Positions 1,606 through 62,876 of a stretch of 64,000 nucleotides of DNA are shown piece by piece. Below the pieces are notes generated by a model. The model worked only from the letters and a program-made list of their open reading frames with translations. It was not told the DNA's origin and made no database searches. The translations under genes were made by a program, and so were the position numbers. Origin of the DNA: Podarcis gaigeae (lineage: Eukaryota); NCBI GenBank assembly GCA_964106915.2, contig OZ066914.1. The stretch is one strand, 5' to 3'. The first letter of the stretch is position 1. Every line of letters begins with the position of its first letter.

Positions 1606-1648
<43 letters not shown>
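1606..1648. repeat. (TA)n microsatellite (left flank of PLE insertion; right flank 1865-1886)
   Basis: Direct reading. Confidence 0.95.
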
Positions 1649-1652
<4 letters not shown>

Positions 1653-1864
1653 GGTTTTGGTGTCCTCGGGTGTCTTCCCGTGTAAAAGTTGGGGTGTCTA
1701 GGCGACGTTTCGACGAGGTCTCACTCGTCATCTTCAGGCTGGTGCTTTCGGCTTCGAGTGAGACCTCGTCGAAACGTCGCCTAGACACCCCAACTTTTAC
1801 ACGGGAAGACACCCGAGGACACCAAAACCTGCATTCCTGTACCCGTGAAAATCTACGAAAGCAA
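1648..1864. mobile_element. Penelope-like element terminal-repeat (pLTR) fold-back insertion, family A, inside (TA)n
   Basis: Perfect 80-bp inverted arms at 1648-1727 and 1755-1834. Hammerhead core on the minus strand. Flanked by (TA)n on both sides. Confidence 0.75.
1702..1739 (-). ncRNA. Minimal hammerhead ribozyme motif (family A)
   Basis: Minus strand reads CUGAAGA-U-GACGAG-ugagac-CUCGUC-GAAACGUC, with palindromic ACGU stem III. Stem I is only about 2 bp. Confidence 0.6.
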
Positions 1865-2143
1865 ATATATATATATATATATATATCCCAAACCTTGGAG
1901 AATAATCCTCTTTTCAGGCATTACTCACATGTAAAAACAAGAGAAACGCTAAGCTCGAGGCCCCACATTGCCCTCTGTGAGTTGAATAATGTACTTCTGA
2001 AGCACAGTGTCTCCTATACAGGGGTGGAGGGGGCGTGGGGGGGCTGTTCCGGGGCAATTGCCCCAGGCACATTTTTCGGGGGGTGTGTGTGTGTGCTCAC
2101 ACCGCCCTCCTGGAGCCAGCCCTGTGCCACTTTGCAAGACTGG

Positions 2144-2475
2144 GATCTGATCAGATCCCAATGGCCATCTAGCCCAGCAGTGGCCAAACAGATGCTTGTG
2201 GGAAGAACACTATCATGACCTGAGAGGAACAGCACTCTACCCACCTGTGATTCCCAGCAACTGGTATTCTGAGGTATGCTGCTTCTGACAGTGCAGCATG
2301 GCTATCACGGCTCGTAGCCGTTAATATCCTTTACGAATTTGTCTGATCTGCTTTCAGACCCATCAAAGTTGGTAGCCGTCACTGTGGGAGCGAGTGCCAT
2401 AGTTAAACTATGCACTGTGTGAAGAAGTATACTTGCTTTTGTCTGTCCTGCACCTTCCAACATTCATCTTCATTG
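2144..2475 (-). mobile_element. CR1-type LINE 3' fragment (degenerate)
   Basis: cagatcccaatggccatctagcccagc ... tgtgtgaagaagta ... ccttccaacattca resembles the reverse complement of squamate CR1 3' ends. Also similar to 44870-45180. Confidence 0.55.
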
Positions 2476-2490
2476 AAAAGTCTTTCTCTT

Positions 2491-3512
2491 TTTTTAATAA
2501 TAATTTTTATTAATTTTCCAAGTTTTAAAATAAAACAGCAACATCATCAATAAGATCAAACAGATACATACAATATCATTTCTTAACCTCATTTTCTTAA
2601 CCCTCCTTTCTCAGACTTCCCCGTACCTCACCCTTTTTGCATCCTTGTTTTACAATTTTTCAGCAACCCTTTTTGCCAATTAAATTAAAACTTATCTTTC
2701 TCAATTCCACCTTAAATCATCAAATAGTTTCAGCTGTAATTCTACATCTTCCTTCCCCTTGACAATTTAACATTCCTCAATTTTATAACAGTCCTTAAGA
2801 TATACTTTAAATTTCTTCCAATCTTCCTCCACCGTCTCCTTCTCTTGGTCACGGATTCTGCCAGTCATTTCTGCCAGTCCCATAAAGTCGATCACTTTCG
2901 TCTGCCATTCTTCCAGTGTGGGTAGTTCTTGTGTCTTCCAATACTTTGCTAGAAGGATCCTTGCTGCTGTAGTGGCGTACATAAAAAAGGTCTTATCCCT
3001 CCTTGACACCAATTGATCGACCATGCCCAAGAGAAAAGCCTCTGGTTTCTTGTGAAAGGTGCACTTAAGTACCTTCTTAATTTCATTATAAATCATTTCC
3101 CAAAAGGCTTTAATCTTTGGGCAGGTCCACCAAAGGTGGAAGAAGGTACCTTCAGTCTCATGACATTTCCAGCATTTATTATTGGGCAAATGGTAAATTT
3201 TCGCCAGCTTGACTGGGGTCATGTACCACCTATAAATCATTTTCATAATATTTTCTCTTAGGGCATTACATGCCGTGAATTTAATACCGGTGGTCCATAA
3301 CTGTTCCCAGTCAGCAAACATAATGTCATGACCAATGTCCTGTGCCCATTTAATCATGGCTGATTTAACCGTCTCATCTATTGTATTCCACCTCAGCAAC
3401 AAATTATACATTCTTGATAGATTCTTAGTATTAGGTTCTAACAATTCTGTTTCTAGTTTCGATTTCTCCCTCTGGAAGCCTATTTTCCTGTCTTGTTTAA
3501 AAGTCTCCATTA
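2491..3512 (-). mobile_element. 5'-truncated L1-type LINE (ORF2 C-terminus, 3'UTR, polyA)
   Basis: Open ORF 2767-3510 with CWKC...FFHLWWTC zinc knuckle typical of L1 ORF2 ends. Minus-strand AATAAA at 2506-2511 and A-tail. Possible TSD tttctctt (2483-2490 and 3513-3520). Confidence 0.88.
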
Positions 3513-4239
3513 TTTCTCTTCTGCCTACTTCTGTGTGAATACAGTATGTTTTGAACCCTTAATGGAAAAGTGTGTGTGAATGTATTGTGAGATGCTTGAC
3601 AGAACCTGATAGCCAGTTCTTACATATTTCAAGTGCAACGAATTTGTTGTTACTCTACAAACTGTATTTGTGTGTGTGTGTTCCTATGTATGCATGTACA
3701 TGTGTGCATGTATGTAGTTCTTTTGTTCATTTTAATCTTTGCTTTTCTTTCCCCCCATTTTATCCCTGGTTTCTTTCCTTGCCTGCCTGCATGTAATTGT
3801 GCACATAATTAAGGCTGGCAAGATAAACACCTACAGCTGCTCCATGGAGGAACCCAGCCAAGACTGACACTATTCCTGTCCTGCATCGTTTGCCAAGGCA
3901 CTGAGGCTTGGTTGTCAGCATCTATTCCCTCTGTGTATCTACTACTAACCCCAAGCTTCTTACTTAATATGTTGACACACTATGGCTGATAGCAACATTG
4001 GGAGTTTTGTCAAGCGCAGCATGGTTGAGCCTTTGTAATTTTTATGAAGAATAGTGGTAATTGCAGCTGCAGGTATAGAGCCACCTTGGCTTACATCTTT
4101 TCAGAATGGTCAGTCAACATGCAGAACTTCATGTCCTCAGGTGCAATTTACCCTTGTTTTTGTTTGTTTTTTACCTTCGTCTGTATGCCAGAGAAATGGA
4201 TGGTATCTTGTCAAAAGTTTCCTAATATATTACAATATA

Positions 4240-4830: not shown

Positions 4831-5123
4831 CTATGTGCTCTACTATAGCTACTATATAAATCTATATTTCTATCTGTCTGCACTATTTATGCTATATACT
4901 ATAGCTACTGTATGATATACCTGATTGAAATACTGTTGAGAAGACACTGAACTGTATTTTGATCCAGTCTTTCCTGGCCACAAGTTCCCTAACCAAGCTT
5001 TCCATTTCCACCTTGAGTAGGGTGGAGGGAATTGGGTCCTTGTTTCTCAGAAAATCTGTTGTGTTGCATTATTTGAAGATGAGATATTTGTAAGATATTC
5101 AATCCAAATGTATTATTTTGCAG

Positions 5124-8100
5124 GTACTGAGCAACAGCCGATAAATGTTGCCCCCTCTTCAGAGTCTTTTACCAACTGGAGAGCTATATTATCACCAACA
5201 TGGCCTTCTAGAGAACTTGAGTCTTCCTCAGTGGGTGACATTTCAATGAGGCAAGCCTTGGAGAATGCCAATCTGCTTCAGATAATAAAAAGTACTTTAG
5301 CAGAGACACGGACGAGAACTATGGACCAAACTAGGTTTTTGCCAAGCCTATATCAAGGCAGTGGCAACAGCGCATCCCAAGAACCTTCTGAGGTATCAGC
5401 TGAATCACCAGTGAAGTCTCAAGATGCTGACGAAATGACTATTGTATCAGGTTTGCCTCAAATCAGTGTGTTACCCGCATTGTCCACATCATCACCAGTG
5501 ACACATTCAACTACTACTGTGTCATCCCAGATAATTCCATATGCAACATCCTCCATTTCAAAAGAAATCACATCGGGATCAGACATAGTTTCAACCTCTC
5601 CATTACCACCCCCTTTGCCATTGGTAAAGGAATCACCTCATATCATAATTGTTTCCAATTTGACTGTGCCACCCACCCAAGTGCCTTTGTCCACAGATAC
5701 AGAAAATTCATTCAGCATAGACACAGTTAATTATTTAAATAAAACTTCAGGTAATCCACAGAGTACGCTAGTGCCTGGAAATTCCAGCGCAACAGAATTT
5801 GCAGCATCCAGAAAGGATGGCAAAGAGTTTTCTGTTGCCACCTCAATTAGTGATGGCATTGGATTGATTAGTGGTCATTCCACAATACCAGCAGGGACAC
5901 AATCACACCCAGAAGATAGGAAACTGCACTCTCCTGCTTTGCATGCAATAATATCCAATAAGACTTCTCTCCTATTATCCAGTCACAGAGTGCCATTGAA
6001 TTCTAGCAGAAATATTTTTTTCTCTGGATTCACTCACAAAGCATCTTTTGTAGCAGAGCTCCCGAGTAAGCCACCAGATGCCATGACACATCATAAGGAG
6101 AGTAGCATATATGCAACTGCATCATCTACAGTTCATAAGAACAAGACAGTTCCTTGGATTTCTGCATCAGCCCCCCATACCTTAAGTTCTTCACCTGCAC
6201 AATTTAAAATAATGACTGATTTGCTGTCTGCATCACTTTCAAGTTCTTCCAAAGAGAGAGATTTATTAGCAGTATCTGAAAATCCAAGACCTTTTCGTTT
6301 GTCTCTCCCAGCAGTGCCAACTGGAGCTATTTCAGAGGCAATAAGCAAAAATAGTGTGATTGTTCCAGCACCCGCACCTACTAGTATACCAGCTTTTTAT
6401 ACAGCAGATAAAGTCATTTCCTTAATAAAGGGGACAAATCAAACTTCTAACGCAGCTGGACATCAGATGGTTTCAGCACCAAATGATAAAGTTGCTTCCG
6501 ATATTCATTTAACAAATCCTTATGCCACAGAATCAAAACCAGAGATTTCTAATACAGCTTATGAAACCAGTGAAAACACACCTCCCATAGCCTATGAAGC
6601 CTTGGTAAGATCATTACAACGTCGGTCATTCACCAAAGATGCTAGTGACGCAGTGTTCACAAATGTTGATGTGAATAGATTATTTCCAGGAACGCGAACC
6701 ACAAATGTTTCTTTAGAAACTCCTGCCAACGAGCAAATTCTCAAGAGAATTTTGCCATTTGAAAGAACCAGCTCCAATAAATTTTCAGTATCTTTGCCAA
6801 CTTCTGTTGGAGGCCTTTTGAAATTTCGTTCCACAGCCATGTTTATATCTCCTCCTGATAATTTTAGAAGTTCTCGATTAGCAGATTCTAATGTGGGAAG
6901 GCCAATTCTTAGCTTGATAGAAAAGGAGGAGAGAAATGTGAAGGTATCCACCACTGCGATGCCCCATGCAGAATATTTATCTCATCTACCTTTAAATGAA
7001 TCTGATGCTGAAATGCATGAAACCGTACATAAAGTTGATACTTCCTTCAGGACTGCTATTTCACCTTTGGACATATACATGTTTCCCTCTTCTACTCCAG
7101 CAGCAGAACGTTTGGAAAGCCCAGTGCCTGCTTCCCTAGAAGTTTCAAACACTGCTTCAAAAGGCATCTTAGATATTTCAGATGCAGGAAAGATTTTAAA
7201 AACCACACCATTAGTTCCTGTGTGGGACCCTGGAAGCTGGCTGTCATCTACTGGCATAAGTATATCTTCAGGAAAGACAACAACTCATGTGTCCCGGGTT
7301 GCAGAGGACTATGTGAGCCCTACAGCTTTAAGAACAATATATACAGTGGTTCCAGGCCTACAGCAGCAAACAAATTATGTAAATAAACAGATGCCTTCTA
7401 GCACAGCCACATCACCCATTAGTACATCTGTAACAGTTCTCCCAAATTCTTCAGTTTCAAGTGGAAGAAACTCTAAGAGCTTCACAGAATTTAACACATA
7501 CCCATTGACTGTAGAAACATCTTCTGGCCAGTATGCATCCTTTCCAAGTAAACAAAGTGCTCTCTCACAGGGCACAGAAGTCCCATCCCTGCAATCCAAG
7601 AAGGACACTCGTACACATGGAAATATTTTGGAATATTTTACTGCCAGGAATATGAATGTCACTTCGAGCTTTGGGGAAAATTCCTATCCTGTGTATGAGG
7701 ACTTCACAGCTGCTAATACGAGGACGTCTACTAGCACGGAAGCATTTTCCTCTATTTTGACAGCATATGATCACTTGTGGCCTTTTGTTTCTTATGCCAA
7801 GTCCCAGACTATGTTGAAGCCTCAAACAACTAATTCTGGAAACCTTTTTGCATCAACAGATGCCTTCTATGCAACATCATCTCCCCTATCACTGGCTTCT
7901 CAATTCATTGCTAAATTAACTGTTCCAGTAAATAAGGAAATTAGTGCTGTTAGCAGTAAAAAAACAACATATCACAGCCTGGCACACGAATTGCTAAGCT
8001 CAACACCAGTATTAAATGTTGAAGAATATGTGACTTCAGGAAAACCAACACAGTTCACAAAGGGCCCTGTTTCAGGAGCAAATAATCACTTGAATAAACA

Positions 8101-8897
8101 GCTAACAAGTACAGGAGGGTGGGACACAAAAGGTACAAGTGATATAGATACAGTTAAAATGCATATTGAAGCCACAAAGATCACTCCATTGCAAACACAT
8201 ACCACTAACACAGCCATCATAACCTCTGTTCATGCATCACAAACACGACTAACTACTCCTTTGTTGCCAAAAACCAACTTTACCCATTCTGTCATTACAG
8301 TGTTACCGTCTGTGTCTCCTGGTGTAATACCATCTGTAGCAACTTCAGAAGCAACACCAGTTACAGGAAAATCAGCTCCAACATCACCAATGCTGACTTC
8401 ATCCTTGTTCTCACTGAGCACTGAAAATTCGCCATCTGTGATGGCATTAAGCACGTTAATATCAACACTAGCAAAAAATAATACTGCCACAAAAATGGCA
8501 CCAACTTTAAGCCCAGTAGTGACACGTGCAGCCTTTCCAGTTGTATCAACAGATGAGTCTACAACACCTGTGCACTCCACTAGCTCATTTCCAGTCACAA
8601 AAACGAGTACAGTTTCAGCCCCCACAACACATGCACCAAGACAAACTGAAACAGCAACACATGACACCAAGAAATCCACAAGTTCAGACACCAGTAAAAC
8701 ATCAACTGCATACCCACTGACAATTACAGCAGCTTTGACATCTATTACAGCATCAGCGAAAACAGCTAGACTTCTCCCTACACCTGCCGAAAATACTTCT
8801 GCTACTACTACAACAGTGTCAACTTCAGCTTTTGCTAATGTGACAACAGTTCTTCCTTTGGAATGCCAGCTCTCCAGAAACCTTCTCATTAAGACAG
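5124..8897 (+). CDS. KIAA1549: KIAA1549 giant exon (3774 nt) encoding Ser/Thr/Pro-rich mucin-like ectodomain
   Basis: Lies in ORF 5108-8911. Acceptor ttttgcag|GT at 5123/5124 and donor ACAG|gtatga at 8897/8898, phase 1-1. Ends ...LECQLSRNLLIKT. Confidence 0.93.
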
Positions 8898-10117
8898 GTA
8901 TGAATATGTAGAGGGTTAGTTATCACGAGGCATTGCAATTTCTAATGAAGACATAATATGAATGTCAAGTAGCATTATTATTATTTAAATAGTTTAATAA
9001 ATGACACCGGATAAATTGCAGCTAATTTGATGGATAGATTCTTTGTTAGTTTTTGCAAATCTGAATGATTGTTGATAGTGGAGTGCATGTGCTGCTCCTA
9101 TAAGTTCATACAGCCCAGTTCAAACTGTGGCCATGTCCTGTTTCCTCCATCACTGCCAGGTGGCTGTACCAGTGAGGCCAGAGAATCCAGTGCACCAGAG
9201 ATCAGTATGTTCCAGCTAGGAAGGGAGCTGTCCAGCAAAGGTGCCACAGAGAGCACAATTTTCTGGCTTGGTAATGGCTAGCCTTCAACTAAGCAGGTTT
9301 ATTGCTGACTCTGCTGCCCATCCCTGATCTGAACTGCGTGAGAAGTTTCCTCCTCACAAGTAGGAGTAGAAGGCCTTGTGCTGTCAAATTGGCTCTTCAG
9401 ATCATTGGGGCTTCTGTCTCCTCTGTTCCTAGGAATTATTTTGGAAGGTCTGGTACTGATCACGGCACATCGGTTCTCCTGAAGATGTGGATTCCTCAAG
9501 CAGGACATCTTCATGAGTGATGGCCTTGGGAGACTTTATGGGGGTGGGGGTGGTATGTCAAATTCTGCTGAAGCCCCATGAACACTGTAGGGGATGTGGC
9601 TAGCAACAGGTTTCTTCGTTTCTTCCACAGTTTCCTCCAGTTCTGGGCTCATCTTGATAGGAAACAGTGTGTTTGGACATGCCACTGTGAAATGCTCTCA
9701 TATAACTTGCATGTAAATATGTTTAGGATCGCTGCCATGACCTGTTTCCTATATAGTATTGTAGGGGTCTGTATAACACCTTCCTAAAAACGCAGTAATT
9801 GCAGTTTTATTTCTTCCCAGCAATAACTGGTAACTGCGTTTTCCTGTACATGATGGACCCACAAGCAGATTTGTCACATCAACTCATAGAATTAATATTA
9901 CCAATTTACAACACATGTTCTAGTGCCAAGACATTAACTGCAGCCTTTGAAATTGCTCTAGATGGAAATATCATGGATGCAGTGGACTTCATTATTGACA
10001 ATTCCCTAACACTTTCCATGCTGAAATTGTAGTACAGATAGCTGTGTGTGCGACAGGTCACCTACATTTTGCATTTGTAATCTTGGGTGTAGGAGGAAGG
10101 AAAGGATAGAGCTAGAT

Positions 10118-10246
10118 CAGGCACCCCCAAACTCCAGATATTTTGGGACTACAATTCCCATCATCCCTGACCACTGGTTCTGTTAGCTAGGGATGATGGG
10201 AGTTGTATTCCCAAAATATCTGGAGGGCCGAGTTTGGGGATGCCTG
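10118..10246. mobile_element. hAT-type palindromic MITE (gggactacaactcccatc family)
   Basis: TIRs caggcacccccaaact/agtttggggatgcctg. 8-bp TSD agctagat/agctagac. Confidence 0.8.
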
Positions 10247-11358
10247 AGCTAGACTGATGGAGTTGATGATCTCTGGGTGGGATTAAACTGAGAAGTCGTG
10301 TCAGTGGAAGCCCTGCTGAAGAACTTCTGCTTATGAAATGGAGCTTCCCTTGTTGTTTCCCAATGCCCCTGAACTGGCTGAATAGCATGGGGAGGGTTGT
10401 GTCTGATCGTTCTGTCTGGAAAGCCAAAATATCTGTCCTGATGGAACTATCACCTTAGCGTAATGTTGAATTCCTCCCTCTGTCGTGTTACGTTAGAAGA
10501 AACGTACACATCTCTCGCTAGTCATATCTCTTGCTTTTATAGTCACAAAAATACTAGAAATGTTTGTGACTACTAACTGATGGCGAAGTTGATACAAAAT
10601 ATAGTGGCTTGTTTCATTAGGGCAACAAAGCAGGGGATTTGTATTGAAGCATTTGTGTAGACTATTCAGTGTGTAATTGAGTTAAGTTGCTTTACATCAG
10701 GGATAGCTAATGCAGTGCCTCACGGATGTTGCTGGACTCCAGCTCTCATAGTCTTTGACTATTTGCCATGCTGGCTGGGGCTGATGGCTGATCTGGAGGG
10801 TACCACATTGGATGCTTCTGTTTTAAAGCATATTGGCACATGCCCTCAGAAAACCCATGCTTTTCTGTCTGTCCACCCACTCTGTTACCAACACAGTTCC
10901 AGTGTATGGATTTATTTTTAGGTACATTGTACAAGGAAGCTAATAATGCATACTGAACTTGTTTTTCTTTTCAAATCAACAGGGATGTTGATTTGCTTAT
11001 TACGATCCACTTTGCAAATTCTTCCAGACTAGTATCTCTGAGTCATATGTGTTAATATGCATCTGTAATGCTAAAATGCTTCCTTAATGTATCTGCAGAT
11101 AATCCTTTACTGAAAAAAATTGGTATCGTTATGACTCAGTGTGCCCGTGTGGGTTTTAAATAAGTAGCAACCTAACTGTCTTCAGTTCCCAACAATAGCA
11201 TTTCCTCGGCTTGAAGGTTTTGGTGCTAAGCATAAGTTCACTTCCAGACTGCAGCTGCTTCGTAGAGCCCATGTGAGCAGTCATTAGGCTTTTGAAAAGG
11301 ATTATTAAGCAAATGAACAGAGGGTGCTTTTTAACTAATGTATAACTTTGCATTCTAG

Positions 11359-20579: not shown

Positions 20580-20910
20580 CAGGGGTCGGCAACCTAAGGC
20601 CCATAGGCCACAAGCGGCCCATGCTGGTTGTTTAACCGGCCCATGGACCCCCGCCACCTGCTCGGGGACCCTCGCCGGCCACTCGGTTGGCTCCTGTGCT
20701 AAACTGGCACGGAGCTGAGTGGGGACCTCCTTCCACGATGCTGGCTGGCTTCCCATTGGCTGCAGGAAGCTCCTGCAGCCAATGGGAAGCTGCGCACGTC
20801 TCTTCTGCACCGGAAGGAGAACCAGAAATAGCGCTTGCACGTATGTGCATGTGAGCACACACACCTGTGGGACTGAACCGGCCCAAGCCACAAAAACTTT
20901 GCCAACCCCA
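20580..20910. mobile_element. hAT (Charlie-like) MITE
   Basis: TIRs caggggtcggcaa/ttgccaacccca. Perfect 8-bp TSD atctagac. Confidence 0.8.
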
Positions 20911-35212: not shown

Positions 35213-36440
35213 TATTGGAGCCAGAGTGATGGACTGCTATATTGATTAGCTAGGTTTCCTACAGAAAATATTACTATTATAATATATTTTTGCAAGTTCT
35301 TCTTGTTCGAGGGATATTGGTTAACAAAAAGTGACTTTCTACATTTTGTTAGGTGGCCTTCCATTTTATATAACCACTTACCTGTCTTGCTTTGTCCGCA
35401 ATTGTTTGTTTGCTTAGTTCAAATGATAAACGGAAACTTAAGTCAAATAAGATGGATGTGGTTCATTAGCCCAGGGACATGGAATTGCTCTATCCTCTAA
35501 TGGAGCAGCTTCACAGGTTGGGATTCGACTAGTGAGTCCTGTCAGCGAAAGCCCTGTACAGGGACTTCTGCTTGCACAATGCGACATTCTTCCTCTCCTC
35601 CCCTGGTGCCTCCTGAGAGTGGCTCTGGGGGGAGGGGACAGAAGAAACCCTGGAGCAGTGCACCGTTGTGGGCAAGGGGGGGGAATAACCTTACTTTTAA
35701 GCCAAAATACTTGCCCTGAAGGAACAATCGCCTAGGCGTGACATTGAATTCCTCCCACAGTTTGTGAGTTCTCCTAGATCCACCTTTATCATTGGAGACA
35801 TTCTTTGGATTTTCCTCCTCAGATGCCAGACTTCTCTTCAGTCACCTCAGGCTTCTCTGCAGTGTCAGAAAGATGAATATTTGGAGATAACATAGTTTCC
35901 GCAATAGAGATGTAAGAGATTTGATTTGTTTTTATTTTATCATGGCAATTTACAAGAGTAATGCAACCAAAATTATAGGTCCATTTCCTGAGGATCTTGC
36001 GAACTCAGTTTCAGCATCTCAAGGGAAGGAGGTGCAAGTGTAACATACAGAGAATGTGCAGAAGTGTTATTAATTTACTTACCGCTTTATGCCCAGATAG
36101 TTTCTCTACTCAAACTTCAGATTTATTTCAGTAAGGTTGAGGACTTAAAGTGGGTGGGGGGAAGACTGCAGAAAATATAGACTTAAAAGCATCTTAAGAA
36201 ACAGTTTTGCTAAGCTAAATGGAGCCCCTCTGAAGAACCTGCTTATTGAACATTTATCCTGATTTGCTTGCACAAAGCTTACACAGAGGTTAGATTATAT
36301 CCACTCTTTATTACACATTCATTCTGCATTTTTTGAGGGGCAGTTACACTACAGTGAGCATTCATCTTGATTTGTTTGTGTGGTGTTTACATTTCCTCCC
36401 GATAGCCATTAATCCACACCTTTTCAATGCATTTACCTGT

Positions 36441-36753
36441 TACAGATAGGTAGCCGTGTTGGTCTGCCATAGTCAAAACAAAATTTTTTTTCCTTCCAGT
36501 AGCACCTTAAAGACCAACTAAGTTAGTTCTTGGTATGAGCTTTTCGTGTGCATGCTTCAGATACACTGAAACAGAAGTTGATCTGCCAATCACCCATTCC
36601 CACCACCCTTCTGAGTAATACCCCTCCCCACCTTCTCACTATATAGAAGGGTCTGGTAACTTCTGTTTCAGTGTATCTGAAGAAGTGTGCATGCACACGA
36701 AAGCTCATACCAAGAACTAACTTAGTTGGTCTTTAAGGTGCTACTGGAAGGAA
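36441..36753. mobile_element. Penelope-like element pLTR fold-back insertion, family B
   Basis: 15-bp TSD aatgcatttacctgt (36426-36440 and 36754-36768). Inverted arms at about 36491-36579 and 36658-36753. Hammerhead core present. Confidence 0.85.
36673..36710 (+). ncRNA. Minimal type I hammerhead ribozyme motif (family B)
   Basis: GUAU-CUGAAGA-A-GUGUG-caug-CACAC-GAAAGCUC-AUAC: stem I GUAU/AUAC, 5-bp stem II, palindromic AGCU stem III. Confidence 0.75.
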
Positions 36754-37701
36754 AATGCATTTACCTGTCACTGAAACAGACAGGTTTTTTTTAATTAGTG
36801 AAGTAGTTGTGCTGGGGAAACAGAGCACTTTAATCCTCCTTAAATGTGCAGACCTAAAGTTCTGGTATGCGGCTGAATCAGTCCCATGATGCCTTGGAGG
36901 TGCTGCAGATAATTACTGCATCAGTTCTAACCACAGACTTGAGGCTACCTAACAGCTGTAGAAATTGTTTACTTTCTGTCAGACCAAAGATTCTTTAATT
37001 ATAAAGATAAACTTGTCTTATATTTATTGAAAATGCCCTTGTCTTATGCTCTGACAGTGATTGCTCCTTGACTTGACAGTAGATTACCAGAACTCGTTAC
37101 AATAAAGGAGTCGTTGATTTGCTTCCTTCTTTCTGATATCAATACTACTAAGGGAAGCTATCTCATATTACAAAATGCATTTGTAATAGTACTACCAAGT
37201 TTCCCTTTAAAAATAGCATCCTTATAATTTATCACCTAAGCCTTTTGCTAAAACACTTAGAACTGCATCTCACATCACACTTAAATGACATAGATATGGT
37301 AACTTGAAGCTCTCCCTAACAGCCTTACAAAACTTGAAGAGTCTAATTTTCTACAAGACTAGGAAGGGGAGAGACACATCAGCTGTGACTTATTGCCCCC
37401 CTCCTTTTCTTTTGTGTTTATTGTTTACTTTGCTGCTTCTGTGGACAAGGAAGGGGGAAGGGTTTTTTGTTTTTGTTTTTTGCTGTGGATGCTTGTGGGT
37501 TAGATTAGAAGGGGTTGGTTGCTATATTCTCTTGTTAGCTTTATTGTTCAAAAATATGTGTGCATAAAACTAACCCATACAGTATATGCATACAAGTCTT
37601 TAGCTGCATTGCAGGGGGTGAACTAGATGACCCTTGGGATCCCTTCCAACTCTACAGCGCTTTGATTCTGTGTGTGAAAGTGTGCAAAATTGTATTGAGA
37701 A

Positions 37702-38053
37702 TATGCATTCACAATTGAATATCTCTTCTTTTTAAATGTCCAGGGATACAAGACAATCTTGCAGAGGCTAAAAAGGGTCTTTTCCTCCTCATACAGAGCC
37801 TATAAAACAATTTTTATTGCAAAGCAATTTCTTTTACTATGCAGTTATAAACACAGCTGCATACAGACTCCATACATGACGAACAGAATGAGAGTGCAGC
37901 CATATTTCTGAAAGAGTGCAAGGAGAAAGAGTTGTGCAGTCAGAATGCTTTAACGGCCTCTGTATAGAGGGGAAAGTGACTTTTTGTCTTTTGCAATATT
38001 TCCCTTTATCTCGGTGAGTTTACAAAGGAGATGCATTCAATTGTGAATGCATA
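37702..38053. mobile_element. Fold-back MITE-like element
   Basis: Perfect 19-bp terminal inverted repeat tatgcattcacaattgaat, plus imperfect internal inverted segments. Confidence 0.65.
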
Positions 38054-39664: not shown

Positions 39665-39925
39665 GTAAGAGATTTTAGTTTCTTAATTAAAACTATACTA
39701 ATATTTCATTCAATTCATAATTGCTACAATTCTAATGCATCTTTAAAATCGCTATAATGGCTACTAAAACCAGTATTTCACTATAAGCAGTTGGTGGGTG
39801 GGTGAGAAATCCATGTATTTGAACCCAGCTCTGTGAATTTAGCTACGGTGAAGTATTTTGCTTGCGGGCAGAAAAAATCATGTAATGGCGGCTTGATTTG
39901 CTTGTCTACACAGAAGCCTCTAGAG

Positions 39926-40062
39926 CAGCAGTTCTCAACCTGTGGGTCCCCAGATGTTGTTGGGCTACAACTCCCATCATCCCTGACCACTGGTCATGCT
40001 GGCTAGGAATGATGGGAGTTGTAGTCCAACAACACCTGGGGACTCACAGGTTGAAAACACTG
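39926..40062. mobile_element. hAT-type palindromic MITE
   Basis: TIRs cagcagttctcaacctgtg/cacaggttgaaaacactg. Flanks ctctagag/ctagag. Shares the ctacaactcccatcatcc core. Confidence 0.75.
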
Positions 40063-41973
40063 CTAGAGACTGTGCTCTGTGTTGTACCCAGAGGACTCTG
40101 TGGTGTTTCCTATCAAAATGTTTTTCACCCCTCTCAAAAACGTCTCACTGAGAGGCCTCCTCCCCTCCCATTCCAACTAGCCCCCTTGAGCAAGAGAGAA
40201 CTCAACATAACCTCATGTAACTTCACTGGATTCCAGTTTATCAAGGGATTGCCAGGCTTTGGGGGCTAATGGTAATTTTGAGAAAGTGCCATGGGCACCA
40301 GTCACAAAATGGCTGCTGGGAAGGGTCATGGTGGAGTGATACAAAAAAAACTGCTTTATGTGTGTGACATACTGGTTGCCACATCTAAAAGAGCAGGAAA
40401 AGAGACAGGACCACAACTTCAGCCTTATCATCAATGGGAAAAGGCAGCTACATCAGCCACTACTGCACATGCTCAGAGAGTGCAGTTCTTTCCCCTCTTC
40501 TCTGTTCAGAACTGGGGGGAGAGTGGGTGTCCAATCCTGGTATCTAATGAAAGGTGGGCATGTTAGAGGGGAGATGTTTGATGTATGAGACACCGAACCA
40601 ATGCAGACTAAACTGAGCAGAAAGAGCAAGCAATCACTTGTGCATAATAGATTTTTGAGCGGATATCCCGTATACTGAGACCTTTAGCAGGTTCCATAGG
40701 AGGTACTGACAGGCTCACTGGTACCCAGAGTACCACATTAGTAAGCCCTGCTGTGCATGCAGATCAAGCAAGCAATATAGAGGCAAGACATCTGAATATT
40801 GTTTATAAAGTTCTGCATGTTCATATTAATATAGCTGTCAAGATTGACCTGAGAACCAGAAATTTGTTGCTCCAGCAAGTTTCTGGGCCAAACACGAAGC
40901 CTCTTATAGCCGTTCATGTCCAGGAGGGCCAGCTTATAGTTTGAGAATACTAAATATTCAGAACCATTTCTGAGGGGGGTTGGAAGAGATGACTTCGGGG
41001 TCCATTACAACTCTACCATTCTATGAAGGTGCAATTCTGATATTTACCATATAGAACATAGAACTGAAAGCTCCCAGTTCTAGCCTCAGCAGCTTCTTGC
41101 CAGTGGAGAATTACTCAGTAGGCAGCCTAAGCTCATGTTTAGGGCACCAGCAAAGCAGGGACGTGCACACACACACAAAATTTGTTAAATAATTATTTGA
41201 TATTTCAAAATAGTCACCATGCGAAAAATCAGAACTTGGTTAGACTTCCTTACACCCCACGGCACACTCTTCCCCCATTTTTCTGTTCTCTTTTTGTTAC
41301 TGATGTTGAATCACCCCTTCAGCTCTATCAAACTTGAGGCCTCTGAGAGTTAAGCACACAGTTAAACAACAAATCTAAAACGTAGCCCCTCCACAAGGAC
41401 AAGACTCAGGCCATCTTCTACAGTTGGAAACTGTAGCAGTTCCAGCTGACTATACATTAGAAATTCCTGAATATTGCAGAGTCTTTACTTTGGTCCATCT
41501 CTTATAATCAACATGTCTGCTCTTGTCACTTGGGAAACAGTTCAGCGTGTACTACTGTACCCCTCATATTATTAGAGCATTCGCTCTTTTATAGATTTCA
41601 CCTATATTAACTAAATTTCCAGGCAGACCTGATAATTTTTACACCTCCCTCCTTTTGTCAGACTCCATTAATGAAATTACTATCCAAGTGGCAAAATGGC
41701 AAAATACTTTGCTTCAGCGTGCATTACGAGGAACCCCACCAGCCCCACTAGCGTTCAGCAACCCTTTCTAGGTGACTGTGAATGTGCTGCAACCCCCCCC
41801 CCCCAATATCATTAGCTTTTCACTGTGCTGTCAATTCCTAACCGTCCTCCACTGTTCTGAAAATTGCAACTATATTTGTTTGACTGTGACTTAGTGGCTG
41901 AGCTGTGATGGTAATAAGAAAGAAAGAATTGCATATGGGCAAGTGGGAACCACAATCTTTTCAGTGCTTAGGG

Positions 41974-42109
41974 CAGGCATAGGCAAACTCGGCCCTTCAG
42001 ATGTTTTGGGACTACAACTCCCAGCATCCCTAACTAACAGGACCAGTGGTCAGGGATGATGGGAGTTGTAGTCCCCAAACATCTGGAGGGTCGCGTTTGC
42101 CTATGCCTG
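41974..42109. mobile_element. hAT-type palindromic MITE
   Basis: Perfect TIRs caggcataggcaaac/gtttgcctatgcctg. Perfect 8-bp TSD gcttaggg. Confidence 0.85.
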
Positions 42110-57636: not shown

Positions 57637-57708
57637 GTGTTTTGTTCATGCACTAGAGCAGGGAAAAGTAAAGCCCCCCCAAAGGCATTAGGAAATATGA
57701 TTCTACAG

Positions 57709-57844
57709 CAGGCACCCCGAAACTATGCCCTCCAGATGTTTTGGGACTACAGTTCCCATCATCTCTGACCACTGGTTCTGTTAGCTAGGGGTGATGGGAG
57801 TTGTAGTCCCAAAACATCTGGAGGGCCAAGTCTGGGGATGCCTG
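57709..57844. mobile_element. hAT-type palindromic MITE
   Basis: Same family as 10118-10246. TSD ttctacag/ttctagag. Confidence 0.8.
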
Positions 57845-58236
57845 TTCTAGAGCCTTCAAGACCCACCAGCATTATAATTTGCACTCATGGTCTATGTAGA
57901 TGCCCCACTCTGGCCTTCAGACCTGCTGTTCAGCTACGAAGTAGGTCAGAAACTCTGCCTCCCACTTTTATCTTAGCTTCTGTCTTGCTTATTTTCTGCC
58001 CCCAGTGAGTCATCTGATAGATGTTCATTGTTAGTCTGGTTTATTGTCAAATTTGTGTCACAGAGAAAAATGGGCACCTTTCCTGCATCCATCATCCGTT
58101 TCCACAGCATAGAGCTCTGTCATAGCTGTGGGACAATTGCTTGATTTCCTTAGAAATAACTGGAGAGCTTCAGATTAAATGATGCTACTTATTGATGTTC
58201 TTTATGGACTATGTGTACTGACGGTATAGTGATAAC

Positions 58237-62011: not shown

Positions 62012-62051
62012 ATATATATATATATATATATATATATATGCTTTCGTAGAT

Positions 62052-62095
<44 letters not shown>
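62012..62095. repeat. (TA)n microsatellite interrupted by 18-bp PLE remnant
   Basis: Direct reading. Confidence 0.93.
62039..62056 (-). mobile_element. 18-bp terminal remnant of PLE family A inside (TA)n
   Basis: tgctttcgtagattttca is the exact reverse complement of 1846-1863. Embedded in (TA)n at 62012-62095. Confidence 0.7.
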
Positions 62096-62097
<2 letters not shown>

Positions 62098-62478
62098 CAG
62101 AACTTGCTTATAGGACTATGAAACTTTGCAGTCTGTGCTCGTGTTACACTAGCACAACTGGGGAGATGGAATGGTCCACTCACAGTGCAAATGCTGACAC
62201 AGGAAGCTGCAGAGGAGGTGTGAGAGGACAGAAATAACTTATGTACCAGTGATGGGAAGGGGTCATTCTGACTGAAATGGATCTCTAGAAGTAGAGCTGG
62301 AGAGGGAGGGAGAAGTCAAGCAAGCACTGGGAATGTTGGAGTCATTTGCCCCTCTGACTTCATTTATGACATGATTCTACAACCAATTCTCTAGCCATTC
62401 ATCAGCTGAATAACACGTGGTAAAAACAAAAAAAATTCCTTCCAGTAGCACCTTAAAGACCAACTAAGTCAGTTCTTG

Positions 62479-62516
62479 GTATGAGCTTTCGTGTGCATGC
62501 ACACTTCTTCAGATAC
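62479..62516 (-). ncRNA. Minimal type I hammerhead ribozyme motif (family B, antisense copy)
   Basis: Exact reverse complement of 62529-62566. Confidence 0.72.
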
Positions 62517-62528
62517 ACTTCTTCAGAT

Positions 62529-62566
62529 GTATCTGAAGAAGTGTGCATGCACACGAAAGCTCATAC
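62529..62566 (+). ncRNA. Minimal type I hammerhead ribozyme motif (family B, sense copy)
   Basis: Identical to the motif at 36673-36710. Confidence 0.75.
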
Positions 62567-62876
62567 CAAGAACTGACTTAGTTGGTCTTTAAGGTGCTAC
62601 TGGAAGGAATTTTTTTTGTTTTGACTATGGCAGACCAACACGGCTACCTATCTGTAACTCGAACACGTGGTAAAGACAATCATTTCATGGTTTCTGAAAT
62701 AGCTGTCCATTATGGATAGGTGGTGATAGGCCAAATGAGGTTGGTAAAGAAAATGTAACACTTTATGAAAGTCAAATATAATCACTTCTTATGACTTAGA
62801 CACAGACAGGATTTTTACTGAATTAACCCCCCACCCTTTTGCACAGTTGCCCAACTTTCTCTCTTATATCCAACAG

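Follow-up and report, generated by a model that had tools for sequence, protein, structure and literature searches.

Penelope-like elements (PLEs) are known to leave an insertion unit in which, according to the accessible parts of two accounts (Arkhipova, 2013, PMC3846280; Craig, 2021, PMC8557442), an inverted 5'-truncated copy is present and a tail of 30–40 bp is found at one end only. Among the closest described relatives is Poseidon from Anolis carolinensis (PAc), whose protein is reported to cut and extend both target strands, to prefer AT-rich DNA and to be a predicted dimer, with two start sites that bound the tail and that are both used on either strand (PMC11167929). Some PLEs target microsatellites, namely Naiad at (TA)n, Chlamys at (CA)n and (C)n, and Neptune (PMC8557442). 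Minimal hammerhead ribozymes have also been described in PLEs (Cervera and de la Peña, 2014, PMC4209133), including reptile ones and cases in which two of them lie close together on opposite strands; their cleavage is poor and takes place as dimers or with protein (PMC11167929, PMC4209133, and the review PMC6765202, through which the dimer cleavage work of Lunse et al. is also cited here). At the RNA level, Penelope is the massively edited LINE-class repeat in lizard (Porath, 2017, PMC5625713) and is highly edited in X. tropicalis (PMC10636886). Microsatellite seeding in squamates has been tied to CR1-L3 and Rex (PMC6050309), and the accessible part of PMC12602865 contains nothing relevant to the family described below.

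The window, as we call the whole stretch of DNA that was analysed, comprises 64 kb of Podarcis gaigeae. The host gene of the insert is KIAA1549L, located on the plus strand of the window, and the product of its big exon shows 91–93% identity to Podarcis and Lacerta proteins. Since residues 1–98 of this protein (exon 1) are absent from the window and exon 2 begins at 5123, the insert is placed in intron 1. The features considered in this work are the following.

1606–1649, no strand: left tract (AT)22, the target microsatellite, which masks any target-site duplication (from the sequence).
1648–1727, minus strand: left arm, an inverted element end reaching only to the inner family terminus, the one without tail (ORF offset +82 to +84).
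1648–1731, minus strand: remnant ORF start, with the ATG at core position A9 and 28 open codons.
1702–1739, minus strand: minimal type I hammerhead, the sole whole copy, antisense to KIAA1549L.
1728–1754, minus strand: spacer, continuous with the tail-less left arm; it contains the start codon, the CUGAAGA box and the 17 nt that precede the core.
1755, no strand: head-to-head junction with a 1-nt microhomology (C), without junction palindrome.
1755–1834, plus strand: right arm, a direct copy 5'-truncated within stem II (ORF offset +5), without the CUGAAGA box.
1835–1864, plus strand: 30-nt PLE "tail", on the right side only, with the outer terminus at ORF offset about +113 to +116.
1865–1886, no strand: right tract (AT)11.
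5123–8896, plus strand: KIAA1549L exon 2 (by protein comparison).
62012–62095, minus strand: second copy of the family, recognised by an exact match of 18 nt (E = 9e-4); a 16-nt tail tip (62040–62055) with (AT)14 on one side and (AT)20 on the other, within a late intron of KIAA1549L.

Exon 2 spans some 3.8 kb, with an open frame over its whole length. Its segment 8141–8749 is absent in the Podarcis and Lacerta models tested and mostly kept in others, which suggests alternative splicing within the exon. Some other elements were also seen in the window. A 263-codon stop-free frame without Pfam match is found on the minus strand at about 2470–3558, which by eye resembles an L1-type LINE at its 3' end. 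Palindromic elements of 135–175 bp, with arms 76–86% alike, are present in four related copies (10112–10252, 39908–40082, 41974–42109, and 57702–57851) and are probably MITEs of a DNA transposon. There are in addition an older degenerate inverted repeat of about 350 bp (64%) at 37702–38053 and a 43-bp near-perfect palindrome at 20748–20790.

The non-TA part of the insert (1650–1864) is 215 bp long, reaching the 217 bp given in an earlier note on this DNA when the last AT of the left arm, common to the (AT)22 tract, is counted. The same note had described perfect 80-bp inverted arms around a 27-bp spacer with (TA)n on both sides, and all of this was borne out, 1648–1727 being 100% complementary to 1755–1834 and the flanking tracts being (AT)22 on the left and (AT)11 on the right. 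The region 1600–1890 has a predicted fold of −200.4 kcal/mol (z = −26), and none of 200 shuffles was as stable. Two traits of the layout had been missed, firstly, that the inverted repeat is not terminal, with 30 nt (1835–1864) lying outside the arms on the right side only, and secondly, that the whole hammerhead core is located in the left piece only, the right one beginning within stem II. The insert consists of two 5'-truncated ends of one high-copy family placed head to head. The left piece (1648–1754, minus strand) has the complete ribozyme and ends 30 nt before the element end, and the right piece (1755–1864, plus strand) starts within stem II and includes the final 30 nt. The remnant ORF frame is open on both pieces, and on the right arm through the tail as well, where CCCGUG (1842–1847) is predicted to pair with CACGGG (1800–1805). 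No target-site duplication was found outside the TA tracts, and any copy within them would be masked.

A search of sequencing runs retrieved 20 runs over seven organisms that contain all or part of the locus, at least half of its words being present in 14 of these, and listed no RNA run as containing the locus. Four of the 24 runs listed were compared in detail (DNA runs X3, X4, and X14, from organisms A, B, and G, and RNA run X23), covering the insert region except 1599–1657 and 1854–1895. In the DNA runs of the three organisms the summed contig depth reached 3–6 × 10^5 on the insert vs 8–18 on the adjoining unique flanks, a depth which shows a large family and is not a copy number. Most contig pieces were at least 99% alike (203 of 257, 258 of 320, and 101 of 150 in the three DNA runs). 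Copies ending at 1834 and followed by (AT)n were seen in at least six contigs of X3, at least nine of X4, and at least 18 reads of X23, and among the loose ends listed one contig each in X3 and X14 ended at 1829. Also among those listed, 5'-cut ends before 1793 and 1798 adjoin (AT)n, and one at 1786 in X4 joins non-TA sequence. The family is thus dispersed and multi-copy, its 3' ends being fixed and its 5' truncation varying from copy to copy, and both outer ends of the insert are recurring family ends adjoining (AT)n. As regards TA flanks, the proposal that the family sits in (TA)n held for both copies in the window, and the ends of other copies adjoin (AT)n in all three DNA runs as well as in the RNA run. 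Other copies match up to 1755 and then run on upstream (at least one contig of X3, four of X4, and 74 reads of X23), so the centre of the insert is particular to this insertion; the right-arm sequence continues into spacer sequence in 23 reads of X23. The young PLE family in (TA)n proposed in the earlier note therefore stands as a high-copy, near-identical, (AT)n-flanked family, but the fold-back belongs to this insertion and not to the family.

Close to the insert, window 2050–2150 is a GC-rich, moderately repeated element with contig depths of 50–190 and many loose ends in all three DNA runs. Two alleles were seen in X14 over 1896–1986, differing at 4 of 91 positions, with depths of about 2:1.

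On the minus strand, we could confirm the core of the previously noted minimal hammerhead with a palindromic ACGU for stem III. It comprises CUGAAGA (1737–1731), one unpaired U, a 6-bp stem II closed by G10.1-C11.1, GAAAC-GUC, and the self-complementary ACGU, with C3 of the core at 1737 and the cut predicted after 1704. In comparison with the minimal type I hammerheads of PMC4209133, the core, the G10.1-C11.1 pair, the extra base after A9, and a palindrome for a stem III formed in trans are all present, and stem I has just two Watson-Crick pairs instead of 4–5 bp, as weak as it had been described (about 2 bp). None of the 45 Rfam matches at E ≤ 10 in 1500–2000 was to a hammerhead model, and no hammerhead match reached the gathering score in the whole window; the miRNA-type Rfam matches come from the TA tract or the hairpin. 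The isolated ribozyme segment folds no better than shuffles (z = −1.0), and inside the fold-back the predicted pair probability of stem II is about 1e-17. No build-up of RNA read ends was found at the cut site in X23, a single fragmented library. Being antisense to KIAA1549L and predicted to be buried in the 80-bp duplex, the ribozyme of this copy is probably inert; cleavage in full elements likely requires dimers or the help of the element protein. If the insert is a PLE stump, the hammerhead is very likely a passenger from the pseudo-LTR.

By this layout, the insert is very likely the stump of a Penelope/Poseidon-type retrotransposon. The PLE traits found are a pseudo-LTR with a hammerhead motif, a one-sided tail in the range of 30–40 bp, and an adjoining inverted 5'-truncated copy. 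To these is added a PAc-like organization in which the ORF starts in the hammerhead and is open through the tail, with ends near +80 and +111 to +118, a supporting trait that is no formal criterion of the clade. It is the match in layout to PAc that makes a Penelope/Poseidon-type origin very likely, the clade itself being defined by RT phylogeny and by the absence of a CX2-5CxxC linker; as no RT or GIY-YIG ORF was reached, the PLE identity rests on layout and the clade is one that we infer. None of the 43 long frames of the window contained RT or GIY-YIG. A phmmer search with 36 residues against 1.84 billion representatives gave no real relative, its only match being to a repetitive protein from fish, which agreed locally at 9 of 26 positions (35%) and was discarded as spurious. 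Three candidates came from a 40-residue protein query and none scored, the PDB search gave 0 matches, and the ESM Atlas gave no usable match. The DNA collections gave 0 matches in viral sequences, in prokaryotic genomes, and, with a 24-mer, in metagenomes, and the 27 matches of an 18-mer search were all unrelated outside 18–22 nt, none of them beside TA, and were attributed to chance. A non-LTR retrozyme was rejected, the locus having no head-to-tail tandem array of hammerheads.

How such a stump was inserted can be approached from the geometry of its arms. We consider it probable that a short AT repeat was nicked on its two strands by the element enzyme, and that each nick served to copy the element RNA. 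From one nick, copying would begin at the outer start and produce the arm with the tail; from the other, it would begin some 30 nt upstream, at the inner start, and produce the arm without tail, which would run on 27 nt further. Both cDNAs would abort within about 110 nt, and their truncated ends would then be joined. Because spacer and tail are on different arms, the tail was not copied from the longer cDNA, and since the spacer continues the tail-less arm, one cDNA folding back could not supply the tail of the other. Priming from both nicks on sense RNA seems, with reasonable confidence, the simplest reading of this arrangement. It also gains from a second PLE-like family in the window that shows the same one-tail fold-back, at 36426–36768 and 62412–62674, with a separate minimal hammerhead (stem II of 7 bp), a single-sided tail in both insertions, target duplications of 15 and 13 bp, and no TA. 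All three fold-backs of the window have exactly one tail, and this counts against two-strand priming in one respect, as inserts bearing two tails, or no tail, should also arise if the start were chosen freely on either strand; the model needs an ordered choice that it leaves unexplained. At 36.5 kb, the copy of the second family has lost part of one ribozyme to a deletion, and its spacer measures about 80 bp.

Self-priming would produce the same PLE stump if antisense RNA (or a template-jumping cDNA) folded back and was copied, with the longer arm cut back to the inner terminus. Self-priming on antisense RNA is favoured for head-to-head PLE repeats in the accessible part of Arkhipova (2013, PMC3846280) and can also place the spacer on the tail-less arm; both element strands are found in RNA, and the copy of the second family at 62.5 kb has a small palindrome at its central junction. 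However, complementarity would be expected at the junction, where we found 1 nt of homology and no palindrome. Moreover, a plain cDNA snap-back cannot place the tail on the spacer-less arm, and PAc, supplied with sense RNA in vitro, carries out extension on both target strands (PMC11167929). We consider self-priming unlikely for these reasons. Counting tail, spacer, and junction over the thousands of near-identical stumps to be expected in related lizards, with probable empty sites in relatives, could separate two-strand priming from self-priming.

Whether the short AT repeat assumed for priming from both nicks was there before the element can be looked at in the relatives. Among the contigs listed, none joined both flanks in any run. 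In X14, in which contigs overlap by 30 letters (records 5/6 with 7, and 7 with 8), the left-flank contig stops 14 letters into the TA tract and two right-flank contigs start 39 and 45 letters before 1896, with depths of 10.4 and 4.6 vs 15.4 on the left. This contig geometry suggests a bubble of two empty alleles, (AT)7 and (AT)10. The contigs of X3 fit a 28-bp empty tract or a filled allele alike, and X4 is ambiguous. If the empty alleles are right, the short TA tract came first and the insertion is younger than the split between organisms A and G.

The amount of TA around the insert leads to another version of the PLE stump, in which most of the flanking (AT)n was written at insertion by telomerase-like repeated copying at the primer ends, so that the family builds long TA microsatellites. 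The window has three TA loci of at least six units, and the two long ones (at least 22 bp) both contain the family, the third being just 12 bp. The insert is now flanked by 66 bp of TA in total vs the 14–20 bp deduced for organism G, in one contig of X3 a short run of AT separates two element pieces, and PLE RTs are related to telomerase (PMC8557442). Nevertheless, a short tract seems to have been there already, a target duplication plus ordinary slippage can lengthen it, X3 may have a 28-bp tract, the loci number just two, and the accessible part of the PAc work reports no repeat addition (PMC11167929). We find the writing of TA at insertion quite improbable.

It is highly improbable that two separate insertions in one TA tract were fused later by a deletion between them. 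The family does re-insert in TA beside itself, and the site looks young and labile, but the arms are identical and the one-tail head-to-head layout appears again in the second family with clean target duplications and no TA. A MITE with long inverted ends targeting TA repeats, or a fold-back artefact of the assembly, is scarcely credible even with a perfect long inverted repeat between TA runs and a 1754/1755 junction crossed by no contig among those listed, given that the repeat is not terminal (30 nt lie outside it), that the family continues past 1755 and the centre is not common to other copies, that a 5'-truncated copy of 16 nt exists, and that both outer ends are family termini, unlike in a read chimera.

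Expression of the family could be followed in RNA run X23 (organism G), of which about 12 in 100 were sampled. There were 187 reads on the stretch, nearly all on the element, and since none fits the locus wholly they come from other copies of the family. They differ at 44 places, of which 20 are A>G, 23 T>C, and one C>T (43 of 44 being A>G or T>C), split by read strand. Among the best 22 of the 44 rows, T>C is found in plus-strand first mates (at 1708, 18 of 52 vs 0 of 34) and A>G nearly always in minus-strand first mates (at 1799, 19 of 52 vs 0 of 16), so that with the usual stranded library both types of change are A>G on the RNA. These 22 rows represent 16 distinct sites, and DNA run X14 from the same species has one of the 16. 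A 5' G is scarce at the sites (3 of 16 in the same best 22 rows), a weak signal with Fisher p 0.049. In the GAAA of the ribozyme core, the three A's differ in 10, 16, and 15 of 39 reads. We infer that the family RNA is edited by ADAR, with X14 and X23 being different individuals. The hairpins made by the element's own insertion are likely ADAR substrates, and fold-back insertion could in this way simply explain why Penelope RNA of lizards is hyper-edited, as published.

Taken as a locus the insert is nothing unusual, a stump left in an intron by a retroelement of a known class, and the traits at the level of the element are all already published (layout, tail, minimal hammerhead, microsatellite bias in Naiad, Chlamys, and Neptune, and editing). 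In the literature searched we found no paper that deals with the lacertid family, reports a Poseidon-type element aiming at TA, or describes TA repeats seeded by PLEs, and Repbase, Dfam, the PAc consensus, and some supplements may already contain the family. A much wider picture would be that of a Poseidon-type PLE of lacertids that seeks out short (AT)n, primes from its two strands in a set order and, like the related telomerase, extends the TA repeat on landing, being the main builder of long TA microsatellites in these genomes, each landing leaving an ADAR-edited hairpin that includes the ribozyme core. As a whole we regard it as distinctly unlikely. The insert is useful as a clean record of PLE insertion, in which inverted structures and microsatellite bias are listed as open questions by Craig (2021, PMC8557442). 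In addition, TA microsatellite markers in lacertids may contain PLE insertions.

Compared with known systems, the insert shares with the EN+ PLE unit (PMC3846280, PMC8557442; also the 34-bp repeat of Drosophila Penelope, PMC2377424) the head-to-head truncated copy, the 30-nt one-sided tail, the heavy 5' truncation, and a microsatellite setting that would hide a target duplication, and differs from it in being cut to 215 bp, with no ORF body and no junction palindrome. The hammerhead is like the minimal ones of metazoan PLEs (PMC4209133) in its core, extra base after A9, G10.1-C11.1, long stem II, and palindrome replacing stem III. Its 2-bp stem I, however, contrasts with the 4–5 bp of most of them, D. 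virilis having also 2 bp, and a single whole core without cis partner is found here instead of close pairs on opposite strands (PMC4209133). Naiads have the same (TA)n bias but without canonical hammerheads, and the bias of Neptune has been ascribed to a zinc-finger linker (PMC8557442), whereas the family end here looks Poseidon-like. Non-LTR retrozymes (bioRxiv 10.64898/2026.07.22.740005) are likewise non-coding, hammerhead-bearing, and PLE-derived, but form head-to-tail tandem arrays and not a single head-to-head stump; neither Podarcis nor lizards are named in the accessible part of that preprint.

For PAc, the RNA printed in PMC11167929 (Frangieh et al., 2024) was compared by hand, with hand-counted PAc positions. 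Both have the ATG at A9, a 6-bp stem II, GAAACGUC, E-x-L-R in the tail, and targets rich in AT, and in both the two ends are located about 30 nt apart within the ORF start, bounding the tail. The outer end is at +113 to +116 here vs +111 to +118 in PAc, and the helix around the inner start, predicted to pair +50–55 with +92–97 here, spans +50 to about +94–100 in PAc, both sides having changed. For PAc too, no build-up of read ends at the hammerhead cut site is reported (PMC11167929), the one fragmented library of X23 being uninformative on cleavage here. On the other hand, the sequence has diverged, loop II has 6 nt here vs 7 and stem I 2 bp, the targets are pure (TA)n here vs general AT-rich sites with 5'-ATT for PAc (PMC11167929), and PAc has an ORF while none was recovered for this lizard family. 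Finally, regarding editing, the family resembles the edited lizard Penelope and the palindromic Harbinger of frogs (PMC5625713, PMC10636886) in the probable massive A-to-I editing of its RNA, and a self-contained hairpin needs no neighbour copy. The accessible part of PMC5625713 gives no structural cause for the editing of Penelope, whereas here the insertion mechanism itself would form the hairpin.
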